Below the pieces are notes generated by a model. That model ran no database searches and was not told where the DNA came from. It worked only from the letters and a program-made list of their open reading frames with translations. The position numbers were made by a program, and so were the translations under genes. Of a stretch of 31,495 nucleotides of DNA, positions 21,840 to 29,816 are shown piece by piece. Numbering within the stretch: the first letter of the stretch is position 1; every line of letters begins with the position of its first letter. The stretch is from a virus, in the UHGV virus genome UHGV-0019118, one strand, 5' to 3'.

Positions 21840-23075
21840 TTAGGCTTTGCTATTTATCATTCTGATATAACTAGGCATGCGAGGATCTGAAATTTTATAT
21901 ACCCCTCTGGCAGCCTTTGTAAGGATCGCTCCTTTATCAGCCCTAGTAAAACGCCCAATATAGTTACTCATGTGATAGTTACTCAATAAAACCCCCGTAT
22001 CTTCTCGAATTTGGGCAATCCATTCTTGAATGGTAAATTTATTATCTTTGAATTTTGCTGCTGCATAAAGTATTGATGGATAAATATCAGTTCTGGATGA
22101 AGTAACTGCGTTCTCATAGTCTCTTTTAAGTTGTCCCTCGGTGTTTATTACAGCTCGCTTCAAAGCTTCAGGAAGAATGTCGGAATTTACTTCGCTTTTA
22201 CCAGATGATAAAGCTATATCTGCAGATTCCTTTCCTATAAGATGTGTAAAATATGGAAAACCATTGCTAATTTCAACTATAGAGTTTTTAACTTCACGAC
22301 TAAATGTTATACCCAAGCCATGCTCGCCAGTCTCAATTATTTCATGTAAATATTTATCTTCAATTCGAGAGAGTTGAATTTCATGGAGGCATCTGTTCAC
22401 AGAAGGATGACCTGCTATCAACGAAGCACCGTCACTGGAAATGCCAACTAACAAAATCTTCAAAGGACTATTGGAATCACTAAGTTGTTTAACAAATTCA
22501 GCGACATCATGCTTAACGTCATCACTGACAACATCAAATTCATCTATTAAAAGTATTGCATTCAATTCTTCAAGCGCAAAACAGGCTTTACTTGGAGTAA
22601 GGTCTTCTTTTTCTATCGTGATTTTCTCTTCGGCAGAAACGTCCGCTCTAAATAATTTCAAAACATTAAGCCCAATACCTGCTTTTTTGGTAGTCTCTCT
22701 TTTATTTGCGGCATATTCACTATCAATAAATATAGCTGGCCTTGCAATTATATCTTTGAATTTTGTTTTTTTATCACATCGCACTACAAAAATGTTACTA
22801 GGTAACACACCTTCATTTTTCCCTCCCTCTAAAGTAGATAAGGCGAGCGAGCTTTTCCCAATCCCTCTCTCTCCATAAATCATGCAATGCTTACCATCAG
22901 TAGTTAAGGTGTCGAGGATATGTTCCACCTCGTTATCACGCCCTTTCAAATGGGTAGGTGCCTCAATAGGTTTAGACGGTGTAAAATATAAATCAACATT
23001 TTTAATTTTATTTTTTTTGGCTTTAAAATTACTGAATATGCTGCTGGTAGTTGTCATTTCCGCATCCCATTGCAA
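21840..23075 (-). CDS. Predicted P-loop NTPase (AAA-type ATPase with uncharacterised C-terminal half); AT-rich cargo gene between Q and cos
   Basis: Walker A GERGIGKSSLA and Walker B ILLIDEFDVV; track start is TTG at 23075, more likely ATG at 23055-23057; candidate promoter TTGCAC-N17-TTTAAT just upstream. Confidence 0.65.
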   Translation of the reverse strand: MQWDAEMTTTSSIFSNFKAKKNKIKNVDLYFTPSKPIEAPTHLKGRDNEVEHILDTLTTDGKHCMIYGERGIGKSSLALSTLEGGKNEGVLPSNIFVVRCDKKTKFKDIIARPAIFIDSEYAANKRETTKKAGIGLNVLKLFRADVSAEEKITIEKEDLTPSKACFALEELNAILLIDEFDVVSDDVKHDVAEFVKQLSDSNSPLKILLVGISSDGASLIAGHPSVNRCLHEIQLSRIEDKYLHEIIETGEHGLGITFSREVKNSIVEISNGFPYFTHLIGKESADIALSSGKSEVNSDILPEALKRAVINTEGQLKRDYENAVTSSRTDIYPSILYAAAKFKDNKFTIQEWIAQIREDTGVLLSNYHMSNYIGRFTRADKGAILTKAARGVYKISDPRMPSYIRMINSKA

Positions 23076-23175
23076 AAAGTTAACTCATTAAAAGAAAAAT
23101 TTAGAGTAAGTGCAACACCTATTTTCGGAGCTTGTCACAAGATTTACTACTGAAGTGTAACCGCTTTGGCGCGCA

Positions 23176-23194
23176 ATGCTTTCCCCGCCACGCC
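23176..23194. other. cos cohesive-end site
   Basis: atgctttccccgccacgcc is the reverse complement of GGCGTGGCGGGGAAAGCAT; 17/19 identical to the P2 cohesive end and identical to the 186 cohesive end as I recall it. Confidence 0.65.
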
Positions 23195-23353
23195 TGCCCG
23201 CTTTATGGGTCGGTTTTAATGCAGTTGCATGACAACTCTGGATCCGCGCTAGCTCTGGCGCGCACGGACAGAACGGGCAAGACTGACGCATGCAAAACCA
23301 TGCACCTGATGCATGCACGACTAAAAAACGGGAAATTCGCGGAAAAATGGCAT

Positions 23354-23384
23354 AAAAAAACCGGCATTCAGGGTGCCGGTTTTA
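23354..23384 (-). terminator. Rho-independent terminator ending the SOS-controlled minus-strand operon
   Basis: Stem accggca/tgccggt; on the minus strand it is followed by seven T residues. Confidence 0.5.
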
Positions 23385-23401
23385 GTCTGGTTTTGTCGCG
23401 A

Positions 23402-23503
23402 TTAATGGCCGCGCAATGCGCCAATAACACTGTTGAGGCACATGCTGGCAACAATCATCAGAAAAATCGTCGTCCACGGATTTTCATAAACGAGAGATAA
23501 CAT
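23402..23503 (-). CDS. Possible 33-aa hydrophobic peptide
   Basis: ATG at 23501-23503, AAGAGGA about 11 nt upstream, translation MLSLVYENPWTTIFLMIVASMCLNSVIGALRGH, stop just before the terminator; not on the ORF track (under the length cut-off). Confidence 0.3.
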   Translation of the reverse strand: MLSLVYENPWTTIFLMIVASMCLNSVIGALRGH

Positions 23504-23519
23504 ATTTATATAGTTCCTC

Positions 23520-23804
23520 TTATTTGCGCATTCTGATGTGATTTAACAGGTGTTTGATAACGACTGATAGCTCATCTTTACCGGCCTGCTCGACCATTTT
23601 TGCGGTGTAGCTTTCCACCTCGCGAGAGCTCAGGTCGTTATTTAAAGCCATTAAAGTCAGATTCTTTGCCCAATCGGCAAACGGGTCATTTTTCGATGAA
23701 AGGGGATTTTGCATGTCCAAAAACCTCGAATTATTTAACCAGCAGACGGTTGAAGTATTTGCGACGCTATGACCGGCTAACGCCTCGCGTAGCTCGTTGT
23801 TCAA
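23520..23804 (-). CDS. Hypothetical small protein in the SOS operon
   Basis: ORF-track entry; a more plausible start is the ATG at 23712-23714 (GAGG upstream), giving about 63 aa. Confidence 0.35.
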   Translation of the reverse strand: MNNELREALAGHSVANTSTVCWLNNSRFLDMQNPLSSKNDPFADWAKNLTLMALNNDLSSREVESYTAKMVEQAGKDELSVVIKHLLNHIRMRK

Positions 23805-23847
23805 CCCCGCCAGACCTGAAAGCGAGTTTCAGCTCCGGCGGCGTTAT

Positions 23848-24057
23848 CTATGGTCGACGTGGTGGCGGTGAGTAATGTGTCGGCTTGCTGATGCTATCCA
23901 GCTTGCCGTAATTATCCCTGACTATTTCGGCACACCCGACCAGCTCGGCGGGTGTCAAATTCTCATTGACCATTATCTGCTGCAGACGATGAACGATGGC
24001 CATCAGTTTGATGCTTTTAGTTTTGTGCTGCGGAATTTCACCTGGTAGTCGATGCAT
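23848..24057 (-). CDS. Hypothetical small protein in the SOS operon
   Basis: 69-aa ORF with GAGGG 7 nt upstream of the ATG. Confidence 0.35.
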   Translation of the reverse strand: MHRLPGEIPQHKTKSIKLMAIVHRLQQIMVNENLTPAELVGCAEIVRDNYGKLDSISKPTHYSPPPRRP

Positions 24058-24256
24058 ATTATCACCCTCAATGAATTTTAATCAGTGCCGTCAAAACGCC
24101 ACTATAAAACCATCTCAGGTCATGCCTCATTAATCATGGGGGTGTCATCAATAGCACATTGAGAAATTTTGAAAGGCATGACTTAAGCCTCGTGGGCTCG
24201 TTACTCAACCCCGCCGACGCAAAAAGCTAGTTTTTGCGCCAGCACGGTTATTATGT

Positions 24257-24487
24257 TTAACGCCAGCTATCGTCTTCCCAAATCTCTTGTAATATGCTGC
24301 CTAATGTTTCTCTGTCCGCCTCTTTATCGAATCCGATAGCCTCTACACCAGTCATTGACCCTTTCTTAACGTTAACTTTTGTTGCAGGAAAAACGCATTG
24401 TACTCGATGTGTTATTTCATTCTGAAAAGCATCAATGATCTGTTGCCCTAATTTTTGCTCTTTATCCAACGTGATATTGATTCTCAT
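24257..24487 (-). CDS. DinI-family (DNA-damage-inducible protein I-like) protein
   Basis: 76 aa; MRINITLDKEQKL...ITHRVQCVFP...LQEIWEDDSWR follows the DinI pattern (MRIEV...RIQYAFP...LQETWE...W). Confidence 0.7.
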   Translation of the reverse strand: MRINITLDKEQKLGQQIIDAFQNEITHRVQCVFPATKVNVKKGSMTGVEAIGFDKEADRETLGSILQEIWEDDSWR

Positions 24488-24490
24488 AAT

Positions 24491-24673
24491 CTAATCAGCC
24501 TTATAAAAATTATCATCTTCGGTTTCGTTATTTTCGCTGTTTGCTAGGTCTGCAATGAGAGTGAGCGCGAGCTTTAAGTCTGATGGCTTGCAGTTTGCAA
24601 TCAGAGATACCTCGGCAATAAATTGCACACAAGCCCACTTTTGCTGCGTTCGGCTGAAATGTTCGCCAACCAT
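24491..24673 (-). CDS. Hypothetical 60-aa protein, first gene after the LexA box
   Basis: GGGAGG 6 nt upstream of the ATG; stop lies 3 nt before the DinI-like ATG. Confidence 0.45.
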   Translation of the reverse strand: MVGEHFSRTQQKWACVQFIAEVSLIANCKPSDLKLALTLIADLANSENNETEDDNFYKAD

Positions 24674-24692
24674 GAAATCCCTCCCATAGGGT

Positions 24693-24712
24693 TACTGTAT
24701 GTTTATACAGTA
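24693..24712. promoter_or_regulatory. LexA (SOS) box
   Basis: TACTGTATGTTTATACAGTA matches the consensus TACTGTATATATATACAGTA at 18/20 positions, with CTGT-N8-ACAG intact; lies about 20 bp upstream of the 60-aa ORF. Confidence 0.7.
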
Positions 24713-24785
24713 TCACGTATTGGCAAAAGATGGGAAGAAAAAAACGAATAGAGCGATTGCTGTATGTGCATGATATGGATATGAA

Positions 24786-27008
24786 TTACTCATGTATTGG
24801 TTTTGATGCTTCAGCCATCGCCGCAACACGATTAAGGATTTTCCGAGCTTTAGCCTCATGCGATGGTGCTGCGGAAAATATTTCTCCTTTGGCCGTTCCG
24901 CCTAGCCATTTACCATCAAAACAACTTTTACCACCGGCCATCAGGTGCAGGGCTTCGCCCCGGCTGATATTAATGCCGGTTGTCAGATGTATCTCGTCGA
25001 TAGTTTTAGCTATAGCTGCGTTTTGCTCATCCGTTCCGTGGATGAATTTTCGCCGTGCTGCTGGCTTTTGCTTCCTGAGTCGGTTGGTCAATTCTCGTCT
25101 TTCATGCCGACTCAGTGGTTTTGTTAAATCCAGTATCGGTGGATCGCTTTCGCTTCCCGTACAGTTATTGACAGAACTCCGAGGGACGGCTTTGCCGTCC
25201 TGAAGGTCAACGGCCAAATCAACAGCACGCTTCGGAACAATCTTCCACTGAGTGAGCCGGGTTAAAATCGGGCTTCCTGCACCTATGGAGGAATCGTAGA
25301 CCCCCTTAATACATACCGTTTCCTCACCGTACTGATTAAGCTCGGTACGCGGTTCATACAGTGTGCGCACCTGTAAATCATCGCGACGGACAAACGGCCC
25401 ACCCTGAGCATTAACATAACCAGCCCAGTCACCAGCGTCGGCGGCATCATGGACGGCGGCAAACTCAACGCTCAGACCGTGCGCGGTTTCGGTATCAGCG
25501 AGGCGACGCAACTCACGGTAAACCGTCACCGGCGCACCACCAATAAACTGAAACTGACGGATGTGCCAGCGCGCAGCCCATGCTGAAACGGCGGGGGCTG
25601 TCTCTTTCAGCAGCTCACCGCTTTCATCATCGGTTTCACCATCGAGAGCATAACCGTCGATATTTTTTGAAATGTATTTAGCAACATAGCCGGTTGCGCT
25701 GCCTTTCTCCGGGTCAATGGACTCGGCGTGGAAACGTGCTTTTTTGGATTTATCGCTTTTCAGTTCGTGGCGGTCTTCTTTCCATGCGTATTTACGGACG
25801 ATGGAGCGAACATATTCAACATCTTCCGGCAGCATGAACATCAGCATGTGCCAGTGTGGAGTGCCGTCGTGATGGGGCTCGGCGACACGAATACCGAAAA
25901 TACGGACATCTTCCCGATGTAGTTTGGCACGGATACGCGCCCAGATACCGGTTAGATAGTTTTGCGTGTCAGCCGGGCTGGCACCGCTCCATTTGCTGTT
26001 ACGGTAACCGGCTTTAGTCGTGGCGTGATATTTTGACGGCGCGGTTAGAGTGTAAAACTCACCGACATAACCGAGCTCATTACAGATGTTTTCAAACCCA
26101 CGAATGCGGGTCATGAGCTCACAGCGGCGAATCGCAGGGTTAGCAACTGAGCCATCATATTTTTCAATTAGGCTGATACGGTTGCCGTCTTCGTCTTCGA
26201 GATCCAGACCTTTGAGAAATTCACGAGTGCGGCGCTTTTGTTCACGCCAGTCAGTCACGCAGTTTTTACTCGCGTAAGTGTTTTTTTTCTTACTGACGTT
26301 GCCGACTGCAATTTGCAGGTGTTCGCGCCACGTAGCTGCAACACGGCGCAAACGACCGCGCCACCACCCATCGTTAAACATTTTGGCGATAGCCGGTGCG
26401 ATTTCATCCGCACCGACATATTTTTTTTCAACCCGCTCCCAATGTGGTGGGATAACGTTGAATTGGAGGGAAATAAAGCCAGCACGAATATACCAGGTGT
26501 ACAGCGTTTTAAGCTCGCCGAATCCGTGGTCATTAATGTTGGCAAGTTCACCACGAATGAAATTAGCAATATCAGCGGCCAACAGGTCAACATCAGCGCG
26601 CGACATGTCCGGGAGACGGTTATATCGGGCGACCATATTAACCATGCGTGACGACAGATATTGCATTTGCTGAGTATCAAAATGACTTCCAAAAACAGCG
26701 GTTGATACCTTGCTGTTGATACCAGCGCATTCGTATTTTTTTGCGACCAGTTCAAGACGCGGCAATGCCTTTTTGCAGAAGCTGATTAAAAATGCATTGG
26801 CTCGTTGACTACCCTGATTTTGCTCCAGCACCGCAGCAGTGCGATAAACATCTAACCGCACGCAGTCGGGCTGGAGAGAAAGCACCTTTTTTGCATGCAG
26901 CAAAGCCGCGAACATACGGTCGCGGCGATGCTGTTGCTCATAAGTAAGGTATGGGCTGGAGATTGCCGACCGTGGGATGTTCCACGGATAAGCGAATTGA
27001 ACAGCCAA
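24786..27008 (-). CDS. A: Rolling-circle replication initiator A
   Basis: 740 aa; HUH-type motif HDGTPHWHM and tyrosine motif YVAKYISKNIDGYALD; track start is a TTG, so the true start is uncertain. Confidence 0.85.
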   Translation of the reverse strand: MAVQFAYPWNIPRSAISSPYLTYEQQHRRDRMFAALLHAKKVLSLQPDCVRLDVYRTAAVLEQNQGSQRANAFLISFCKKALPRLELVAKKYECAGINSKVSTAVFGSHFDTQQMQYLSSRMVNMVARYNRLPDMSRADVDLLAADIANFIRGELANINDHGFGELKTLYTWYIRAGFISLQFNVIPPHWERVEKKYVGADEIAPAIAKMFNDGWWRGRLRRVAATWREHLQIAVGNVSKKKNTYASKNCVTDWREQKRRTREFLKGLDLEDEDGNRISLIEKYDGSVANPAIRRCELMTRIRGFENICNELGYVGEFYTLTAPSKYHATTKAGYRNSKWSGASPADTQNYLTGIWARIRAKLHREDVRIFGIRVAEPHHDGTPHWHMLMFMLPEDVEYVRSIVRKYAWKEDRHELKSDKSKKARFHAESIDPEKGSATGYVAKYISKNIDGYALDGETDDESGELLKETAPAVSAWAARWHIRQFQFIGGAPVTVYRELRRLADTETAHGLSVEFAAVHDAADAGDWAGYVNAQGGPFVRRDDLQVRTLYEPRTELNQYGEETVCIKGVYDSSIGAGSPILTRLTQWKIVPKRAVDLAVDLQDGKAVPRSSVNNCTGSESDPPILDLTKPLSRHERRELTNRLRKQKPAARRKFIHGTDEQNAAIAKTIDEIHLTTGINISRGEALHLMAGGKSCFDGKWLGGTAKGEIFSAAPSHEAKARKILNRVAAMAEASKPIHE

Positions 27009-28976: not shown

Positions 28977-29816
28977 ATGAATGATGAAGATTTGAATACG
29001 CAAGATGTGATTGAGCGGATTAGTTCGGCGTATGGTGTCAGCACGCAAAAGGCTTTGGCGGAAGTGCTTGGCGTCCCGTCAAACAGCGTCAGCACTTGGG
29101 TTCAGCGAAACAGTTTTCCAGGCAAAGCCATCATTCAGTGCTCATTAGATACTGGCGCCGATTTAAACTGGCTGCTGACTGGTCAAATTTCAAATTTGAA
29201 TTTGCAAGATTCATCGCCATTGAAAGGAAAGTCACTTTATGACGAGATTTTGGCGAGTGGTGGTAAACCTGTTTTAAGACGCATCCTTGATGCGTATGGT
29301 TTTACAATGCAAAAGGAGCTTGGAGATTTGTTGGATATCTCCTCAGGCACTATCAGCACTTGGGTAAGACGAGATTTCTTCCCCGGTGATGTAGTAGTTA
29401 CTTGTGCTCTTGATACCGGTGTTTCACTGGAATGGTTAGCAACCGGTAAAGGGCAAATGCGAACAAACAGGGAAGCTGTCACATCAGGTTTTTCAATTAA
29501 AAAATCCCGCCTTGAATCTGGTGAGCTTAAGGATGCTGGCGCATGGCACACAGACCCCTCGATGATACCCTCTGATTCAGATGAATTGATTTTTGTCGAA
29601 GGTGTGGGCTCCTCTTGGCTTGTCGACTGTTCGGCTTCGAACATAAGCAATGGGCGTTGGTTAATTGATATCGACGGCGCTCTTGATGTTTTTGATGTGA
29701 TTCGTCTTCCTGGAGGAAAAGTCAGGTTGTCTAATAAAACTGCTGAGTTTGAATGCAATATTTCAGATATCAAGCCTGTCGGGTCTGTAGTTCTTACATT
29801 GGAAAAACACGTATAA
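28977..29816 (+). CDS. cI: 186 CI-like immunity repressor with a duplicated N-terminal DNA-binding domain
   Basis: 279 aa; residues about 12-70 and 100-160 are clear copies of each other (…AYGVSTQKALAEVLGVPSNSVSTWVQRNSFPGKAIIQCSLDTGADLNWLLTGQ vs …AYGFTMQKELGDLLDISSGTISTWVRRDFFPGDVVVTCALDTGVSLEWLATGKGQ); divergent from apl and upstream of int. Confidence 0.75.
   Translation: MNDEDLNTQDVIERISSAYGVSTQKALAEVLGVPSNSVSTWVQRNSFPGKAIIQCSLDTGADLNWLLTGQISNLNLQDSSPLKGKSLYDEILASGGKPVLRRILDAYGFTMQKELGDLLDISSGTISTWVRRDFFPGDVVVTCALDTGVSLEWLATGKGQMRTNREAVTSGFSIKKSRLESGELKDAGAWHTDPSMIPSDSDELIFVEGVGSSWLVDCSASNISNGRWLIDIDGALDVFDVIRLPGGKVRLSNKTAEFECNISDIKPVGSVVLTLEKHV

Follow-up and report, generated by a model that had tools for sequence, protein, structure and literature searches.

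A predicted LexA-controlled split tum operon, with a recurring hairpin element, between gene A and cos of a 186/PSP3-type prophage

Do the small minus-strand genes that lie between replication gene A and the cohesive end site (cos) of the virus genome UHGV-0019118 form an SOS-induction operon, and which of their products would then disable the CI repressor? The whole stretch of DNA analysed, 31,495 nucleotides (nt) long and referred to below as the window, is a complete prophage that belongs to the 186/PSP3 (Eganvirus-like) type of the P2 family and is reversed relative to the standard 186 map. The genes in question stand directly downstream of gene A and are followed by cos, a gene for a 411-amino-acid (aa) nucleoside triphosphatase (NTPase) and the portal gene; the site between gene A and cos is the same as that occupied by the LexA-repressed tum operon in coliphage 186. 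A preliminary description made from the sequence alone had proposed a LexA-controlled operon of five open reading frames (ORFs) here, starting with a Tum-type antirepressor split into two genes. We put at about 85% the probability that the locus is the SOS-induction operon of this prophage, consisting of a LexA-repressed promoter, a TumA antirepressor, a DinI-like TumB and distal passenger modules. The locus is an ordinary case of the 186 p95/tum SOS operon in the split form of PSP3 and Fels-2, and its mechanism is already known, adding nothing beyond phages 186, PSP3, Fels-2 and Gifsy. Its only possibly new element is a hairpin-bearing repeat, termed E below; the contrast between the CI core and its variable first DNA-binding domain and a 33-aa gene are side novelties.

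The features of the control region and of the far end of the unit are the following.

24786-27008, minus strand: replication gene A.
24731-24736, minus strand: -35 hexamer TTCCCA.
24707-24712, minus strand: -10 hexamer TACTGT, preceded by TGa (TGaTACTGT).
24693-24712: LexA operator TACTGTATGTTTATACAGTA, overlapping the -10 hexamer.
23354-23383, minus strand: intrinsic terminator, homologue of 186 t95b.
23176-23194, minus strand: cos 19-nt cohesive end, GGCGTGGCGGGGAAAGCAT in the minus-strand reading.

The near-consensus LexA box that the preliminary description had placed about 20 bp upstream of the 60-aa ORF is borne out. It agrees with the 20-nt consensus at 18 of 20 positions and is the only site of that quality in the window, with none expected by chance (none in 100 shuffles); the pattern CTGT-N8-ACAG occurs in the window at this site alone. 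We scored it with a heterology index (HI) matrix trained on 30 E. coli LexA sites, whose absolute values are approximate. The operator scored 1.84, all 30 training sites scored worse (2.1-11.8), and the next-best 20-mer of the window scored 13.2. Its end lies 19 nt from the ATG of tumA. The same 20-mer is annotated as a LexA site in the 186 record (U32222, 29044-29063), where it overlaps the -10 of promoter p95, and p95 itself carries the note 'SOS-dependent transcription of SOS operon'.

The segment that runs from the end of gene A to the far side of the LexA box can be aligned with its counterparts in 186, PSP3, SI22 and 613R3 and, in 186, includes the annotated p95. In the alignment, the -35 hexamer falls on the annotated p95 -35 (TTCACA) with the same 18-nt spacer, and the -10 hexamer corresponds to the first 6 nt of the operator on the transcribed strand. 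The promoter is assigned because it is homologous to p95, and by homology only. This alignment, taken with the shared location between gene A and cos, agrees with the earlier equation of the position with the LexA-repressed tum operon of 186.

On the transcribed strand, the asymmetric 8-nt core of the operator is ATAAACAT in the window and ATGTTTAT in 186; one is the exact inversion of the other. Relatives were surveyed in a sample of 124 related loci that was ascertained through element E. Among relatives, the core reads ATGTTTAT in 18 loci, ATAAACAT in 3, ATAAATAT in 29 and ATATTTAT in 2, which suggests either repeated flipping of the core between its palindromic flanks or an absence of constraint on its orientation. 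A strong LexA box stands at a fixed distance upstream of E in 64 of the 96 relatives with enough upstream sequence. With a position conserved in dozens of relatives, an operator that beats all 30 training sites, five intact ORFs and a CI repressor that has no S24 domain (see below), it is highly improbable that the box is vestigial and that the prophage either cannot be induced or is induced in some other way, for instance by autocleavage of CI, even though some P2-family phages, P2 itself included, are not SOS-inducible and the promoter hexamers here are weak.

At the other end of the unit, the terminator combines a 7-bp GC-rich stem (ACCGGCA/UGCCGGU, 23360-23380) and a 7-nt loop with a U7 run ending at 23354 (-14.2 kcal/mol, z -4.3). 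It lies 160 bp from a cos 19-mer identical to nt 1-19 of U32222, as the preliminary description had it in ending the operon at a terminator near cos. The terminator and its downstream flank can be aligned with the annotated 186 t95b, and its palindrome was also called on the plus strand by the terminator scan. It is the sole canonical terminator within the operon. The consensus promoter scan called one site, within tumB, which is no more than chance expectation; it found no promoter-like excess inside the operon and no promoter in the leaders between modules. From box to terminator the operon measures ~1.36 kb, against ~1.42 kb from p95 to t95b in 186, and the earlier statement that it is longer than its 186 counterpart does not stand; it merely holds more and smaller genes. 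Given this arrangement, read-through from the LexA-controlled promoter into the distal genes is plausible.

The antirepressor question turns on the first two genes of the operon and on the repressor.

24491-24673, minus strand: tumA, 60-aa antirepressor-type protein, with the Shine-Dalgarno sequence GGGAGGG at 24679-24685.
24257-24487, minus strand: tumB, 76-aa DinI-family protein, its ATG 3 nt after the tumA stop (TAG 24491-24493).
28977-29816, plus strand: CI repressor, 279 aa, matching Pfam Phage_CI_repr twice and Phage_CI_C.

TumA is 98% identical to its PSP3 namesake and 100% identical to a coding sequence (CDS) of vB_EcoM-613R3 annotated 'UV induction of prophage'. TumA (1.1e-31) and residues 1-70 of 186 Tum (1.5e-23) each match phrog_1993 over essentially the whole profile. 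A profile-profile comparison (hhalign) of the TumA group with the group of 186 Tum N-termini gave 84% probability and E 7e-6 over 33 columns, centred on the common motif C-x3-D-x3-AL-x-LIA-[DE]-[IL]-A. These profile matches make TumA a homologue of the N-terminal half of 186 Tum. The protein database contains 208 TumA clusters across Enterobacteriaceae, some of which carry the UniRef name TumA. An AlphaFold2 model of the protein shows a two-helix hairpin (residues 8-25 and 30-51) with an acidic tail, at a predicted local distance difference test score (pLDDT) of 71. A PDB sequence search with TumA found nothing, a Foldseek search of the PDB with the model gave no match better than E 4.8, and no Pfam, NCBIfam or PADLOC family was significant.

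TumB matches Pfam DinI (PF06183) at 1.7e-17, with 63.9 bits where the cut-off is 24.2; its identity is 70% to residues 71-146 of 186 Tum and only 47% to PSP3 TumB. It falls below the cut-off of the chromosomal DinI equivalog NCBIfam NF007893 (51.4 vs 111 bits), a score that excludes a host DinI orthologue; by sequence, TumB is a DinI-family paralogue. The two products together correspond to a split Tum, as had been supposed from the letters alone. Phage 186 makes Tum as a single polypeptide of 146 aa, with internal starts that give DinI-only forms, whereas here a stop codon makes two genes. This layout is already known: the PSP3 record (AY135486) annotates tumA as 'similar to 5' end 186 tum; UV induction of prophage' and tumB as 'similar to dinI and 3' end of 186 tum', and Lemire et al. 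2011 (PMC3121763) describe tum as split by a stop codon in PSP3 and Fels-2. Among the sampled relatives the split form is the commoner, with ~40 loci against ~25 with a fused 146-aa tum.

The pair found here is itself a mosaic of a PSP3-type tumA and a 186-type DinI part. The same TumA is followed by either of two TumB lineages in related contigs, and both lineages share their first 12 residues (MRINITLDKEQK), a likely recombination point.

Two CI-type helix-turn-helix (HTH) domains were found by Pfam in the repressor, as expected from its earlier description as a tandem-HTH protein; the same search found no S24 peptidase (autocleavage) domain, and CI is taken to be non-cleavable for that reason. 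Residues 99-272 are colinear with the entire 192-aa CI of 186 (34% identity), and residues 10-94 form an extra HTH copy 37% identical to the 186 N-terminal domain, so that two HTH domains stand here against one in 186. PSP3 has a long tandem-HTH CI as well, 78% identical to this one, but its first HTH is only 47% identical, and the two phages are therefore probably heteroimmune. In the phage collection, the 10 records (7 phages) with a TumA of at least 98% identity are exactly those that have the long CI. Between immunity types, the extra HTH1 is 43-51% identical, HTH2 88-90% and the C-terminal domain 77-90%, while TumA is nearly invariant across phages having the long CI. We therefore infer that TumA contacts the conserved part of CI, and its target surface is likely to be the 186-like core (HTH2 and/or the C-terminal domain) rather than the variable HTH1. 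If the contact lies there, one TumA could act on heteroimmune relatives, and the TumA of one phage could cross-induce others that differ in CI HTH1; Gifsy antirepressors are known to act in trans (PMC3121763). The prediction that follows is that TumA docks on the invariant 186-like CI core and that heteroimmune relatives sharing TumA may be co-induced.

The preliminary description had called the CI-inactivating product unknown. Homology offers an answer, in that TumA would be the antirepressor acting on CI, with CI binding itself predicted from the relationship to Tum. The 186 record describes Tum as 'expression repressed by LexA; inhibits CI DNA binding' and the internally initiated, DinI-only Tum95.5 as a form that 'modulates SOS induction', and PMC3121763 assigns the antirepressor activity of PSP3 to the upstream gene of the split tum. 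A different assignment, in which TumB is the antirepressor or TumA and TumB act as a two-chain Tum, TumA alone being insufficient, would fit the presence of both parts in the single 186 polypeptide and the constant adjacency of tumA and tumB, which are 3 nt apart; primary data on TumA alone were not found in the literature searched. We consider this assignment unlikely. Besides the PSP3 assignment, TumA of at least 98% identity pairs with two TumB lineages that are 47% identical, which argues against a tight TumA-TumB complex; the DinI-only truncated forms of 186 Tum are annotated as modulators only; and deletion of the dinI homologue in Gifsy had no effect on induction (PMC3121763). The Gifsy GfoA/GftA and N15 AntC systems resemble the present locus in having a LexA-repressed operon, a small antirepressor directed against a non-cleavable repressor, and a dinI homologue within that operon (PMC3121763). 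They differ in that dinI comes first in Gifsy and in belonging to the lambdoid family with another repressor family; the likeness is one of logic, and no relationship in sequence was found, no test for one having been made.

With TumA as the antirepressor, induction would proceed as follows. In the lysogen, host LexA bound to the high-affinity operator over the -10 and the transcription start would keep the operon off. DNA damage would lead to RecA-stimulated cleavage of LexA and free the p95-type promoter. TumA, a 60-aa acidic helical hairpin, would bind CI reversibly and block its binding to DNA, as 186 Tum does, and loss of CI binding would derepress the lytic promoter. TumB, translationally coupled to tumA and equivalent to the C-terminal half of 186 Tum and to Tum95.5, would modulate RecA filament activity and so tune the SOS signal, and would not act on CI. 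Transcription may continue through the 69-aa gp37-like module and then a 64-aa and 33-aa pair, modules that are separated by copies of E; their genes would be passengers of the variable region between gene A and cos and stand outside the induction mechanism. The sequence features and the homologies are what the analysis shows; control by LexA, the binding of TumA to CI, what TumB does and distal read-through are predictions made from them. The operon would decide whether the prophage awakens under host DNA damage and would thereby affect the spread of phage cargo, including the candidate defence NTPase near cos.

Several observations weigh against this reading. The p95-type promoter was not called by the consensus promoter scan, and both of its hexamers are weak. 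BLASTP found no similarity between TumA and 186 Tum, and the homology depends on profiles and on a 33-column alignment; of the two alignments to 186 Tum that had been foreseen, that of the DinI-like product is direct and that of the 60-aa product succeeds by profiles and fails by BLASTP. The activity of PSP3 TumA is second-hand, as PMC3121763 cites Bunny et al. 2002, which in turn cites a personal communication. The distal modules occur in phages that have neither the LexA box nor tum, so SOS control here may be incidental and they may have promoters of their own, and the stable E hairpins might attenuate read-through. These last two points bear on the downstream half of the operon, which holds the following features.

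24180-24251, minus strand: element E copy 1 (E1), hairpin 24207-24249 and conserved 3' segment, directly after tumB.
23848-24057, minus strand: 69-aa gene, homologue of PSP3 gp37 (phrog_11386, 1.7e-47, full length).
23775-23848, minus strand: element E copy 2 (E2), hairpin 23802-23846 and conserved 3' segment, directly after the 69-aa gene.
23520-23714, minus strand: 64-aa gene, ATG at 23714 (phrog_2454, 4.6e-40, positions 1-64 of 64).
23402-23503, minus strand: 33-aa hydrophobic ORF, just before the terminator.

The ORFs of 60, 69 and 33 aa and the DinI-like ORF are as first described, and the one given there as 63-94 aa is a 64-aa gene. The 94-aa version is an artefactual extension from a TTG that begins in a non-coding element, and phrog_2454 fits the 64-aa form over its full length. 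Across 11 homologues of this gene, variable sites fall 8/9/23 by codon position. The records of PSP3, SI22 and RefSeq E. coli list the 69-aa gene as a CDS. In all 11 homologous loci the 33-aa ORF is intact and 33 aa long, and it always accompanies the 64-aa gene. In tblastn against phages it gave full-length matches in 15 records at 73-91% identity. A few phage records annotate it, including that of Klebsiella phage ST147-VIM1phi7.1, where it is a CDS, whereas the RefSeq E. coli genomes do not; between the Klebsiella phage copy and the present one there are 14 nt differences, distributed 8/0/6 over the codon positions, and all replacements are conservative. The ORF is, on this pattern, probably a real small membrane protein, which gives support to a gene that is missing from RefSeq annotation.

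Neither the 69-, 64- nor 33-aa protein belongs to a significant Pfam, NCBIfam or PADLOC family, and the weak Pfam matches of the 69-aa, the extended 94-aa and the 33-aa proteins lie below the gathering cut-offs. In PHROGs, the 69-aa and 64-aa proteins match families of 'unknown function' only and the 33-aa protein has no match, and PDB sequence searches with the 69-aa and 64-aa proteins returned chance-level matches only. In terms of gene content, the five-ORF operon is, by comparison with relatives, a composite of three modules: tumA-tumB, the gp37-like gene, and the 64-aa and 33-aa pair. The two distal ones are treated as separate modules because both also occur without the SOS unit. The gp37-like gene with E is found in ~29 loci that have a P2-type gene A and neither tum nor a LexA box, and the 64-aa/33-aa pair adjoins the terminator in phages with other upstream neighbours, including a gene on the opposite strand. 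Relative to 186, where the partial terminator t95a follows tum and is itself followed by orf97 (243 aa), tumB is followed here by E1, the gp37-like gene, E2 and the 64-aa and 33-aa genes. PSP3 shares the tumA-tumB-gp37 order, and its gp37 is flanked by two E copies ~405 bp apart as in the window, but gp38 (139 aa) stands where the 64-aa/33-aa pair stands here.

Element E came to light through the hairpin in the spacer after tumB. The preliminary description had reported a perfect hairpin with 8-bp arms; the hairpin is real, and its coordinates had been set about 10 nt off, the arms lying at 24218-24225 and 24231-24238, to the left of where they had been placed. These arms (24218-24238) are the tip of an imperfect hairpin of ~18 bp over 19 positions that spans 24207-24249. 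E1 and E2 are 71% identical and ~405 bp apart, were found as direct-repeat family D1 and inverted repeat I1, and score 51 and 78 bits, respectively, in nhmmer. E2 is near-identical to the single copy in 186, which is located after orf97. PSP3 has two copies and P2 none, and no locus has more than two.

At least 120 P2-like contigs of IMG/VR contain a perfect copy of a 20-mer taken from E, and a scan of one genome per bacterial species found the full element in 10 Enterobacterales only; the genome-wide scan with the 20-mer yields many chance matches in GC-rich genomes. In all E-bearing loci, E lies between gene A and the portal gene, and the modules around it vary in order, with a fused Tum, TumA and TumB or neither, orf97, gp37 and the 64-aa gene. 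It starts 2-12 nt past the stop codon of at least 6 different upstream genes, and the sequence downstream of it diverges immediately after GCGTTAG. The 3' segment, GGGGTTGAACAACGAGC-N2-4-GCGAGGCGTTAG, is nearly invariant, although the sample was drawn using part of this segment and its conservation is therefore overstated.

The hairpin is paired in 94-97% of cells, with double changes at 7 pairs, against ~40% when the partners are slid. Over 39 sequences there are 572 Watson-Crick, 91 G.U and 7 A.C cells, a strand-specific pattern. E2 folds at -37.8 kcal/mol in the sense direction (z -3.9; antisense z -2.7) and E1 at -32.7 kcal/mol (z -3.4; antisense z -0.2). The paired cells, the double changes and the sense-strand specificity indicate a function in the operon transcript; together, these data point to a hairpin under selection that would act in that RNA. 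A second small hairpin, CGAGC-NNN-GCGAG with tandem G.A pairs, becomes Watson-Crick in 4-5 variant sequences, which lends it weak support.

Because no U-run follows the hairpin of E1 or E2, E is not a canonical terminator. Rfam, searched over 22500-25500 up to an E-value of 1, gave no match at the element and two chance-level matches elsewhere in that region. The E sequence was not found in the literature searched, which excludes older papers on the P2 variable region where a prior description is possible. Several known classes of element were considered and set aside. An integron attC site requires paired R''/R' cores, RYYYAAC...GTTRRRY, at the base of an imperfect hairpin and cassette arrays beside an integrase; in E only AAC/GTT fits, the outer RYYY/RRRY are not complementary, and there are at most two copies per locus. 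The resemblance to Chi, GCTGGCGG, has one mismatch, and that stem position is freely variable. For an Ogr/Delta-type activator site (TGT-N12-ACA), E offers TGC-N12-ACA with no conserved promoter downstream. A short ORF from a TTG inside E is broken in frame by the 2-4-nt variation in spacer length, and an outer closing stem, AACGCC/GGCGTT, shows no compensatory changes in variants. A boxA-like sequence on the antisense strand is a weak resemblance.

We tentatively describe E as an undescribed structured element of ~75 nt that is specific to the variable region between gene A and cos in enterobacterial P2-family phages, and that serves both as an RNA insulator, processing site or stabiliser and as a patch of homology for the shuffling of modules (tum, orf97, gp37, defence cargo). 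This description as a whole is more likely to fail than to hold, and the dual role is a guess. E marks the module junctions of the P2 defence hotspot and, with such a role, might explain the exchange of cargo there.

The stability of the E hairpins (-33 to -38 kcal/mol) also raises the alternative that the LexA-controlled unit comprises tumA and tumB only, its transcript being ended, processed or attenuated at E1 and the 69-, 64- and 33-aa genes being independently expressed cargo. This alternative has the partial terminator directly after tum in 186 on its side, as well as the ~29 P2-like loci with a gp37-like gene and E and neither LexA box nor tum, and the 64-aa/33-aa pair that adjoins a terminator behind other neighbours, one of them on the opposite strand. 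We nevertheless judge it improbable, if a serious contender: the E hairpins lack a U-tract, the 186 p95 transcript is annotated to run to t95b, downstream of its E copy, the leaders between modules hold no promoter-like site in the scan, and all genes lie on one strand with short gaps. A single SOS-induced transcript that carries the distal modules as passengers is the reading retained here.

A 14-nt inverted repeat (24114-24127 and 24174-24187; 86% complementary, 46 nt apart) lies within the 122-nt leader between E1 and the 69-aa gene and could form a long-range stem in the transcript.

Over positions 23100-24800, the closest phage record is vB_EcoM-613R3 (96% identity over 69% of the query); other close records are Midge, SI22/SW9 (85% over 95%), PSP3 and SEN1. 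Among complete E. coli genomes, the region is matched in 199 of 5426, and at least 80% of it in 18.

Two further observations concern the surroundings of cos.

21840-23075, minus strand: 411-aa P-loop/STAND-like NTPase, lying in the known P2 defence hotspot with cos on one side and the portal gene on the other.
23283-23317: direct repeats CTGACGCATGCA and CTGATGCATGCA, located between the terminator and cos and accompanied by several GCATGC palindromes.

The NTPase matches Pfam nSTAND1 (1.5e-8), phrog_6841 (1e-176) and the PADLOC candidate PDC-S59 (9e-8). Its gene is on the same strand as the tum operon, and in the prophage, read-through beyond the terminator and cos would reach it. The repeats also occur in 186, upstream of the right cohesive end, and may be part of a packaging signal.

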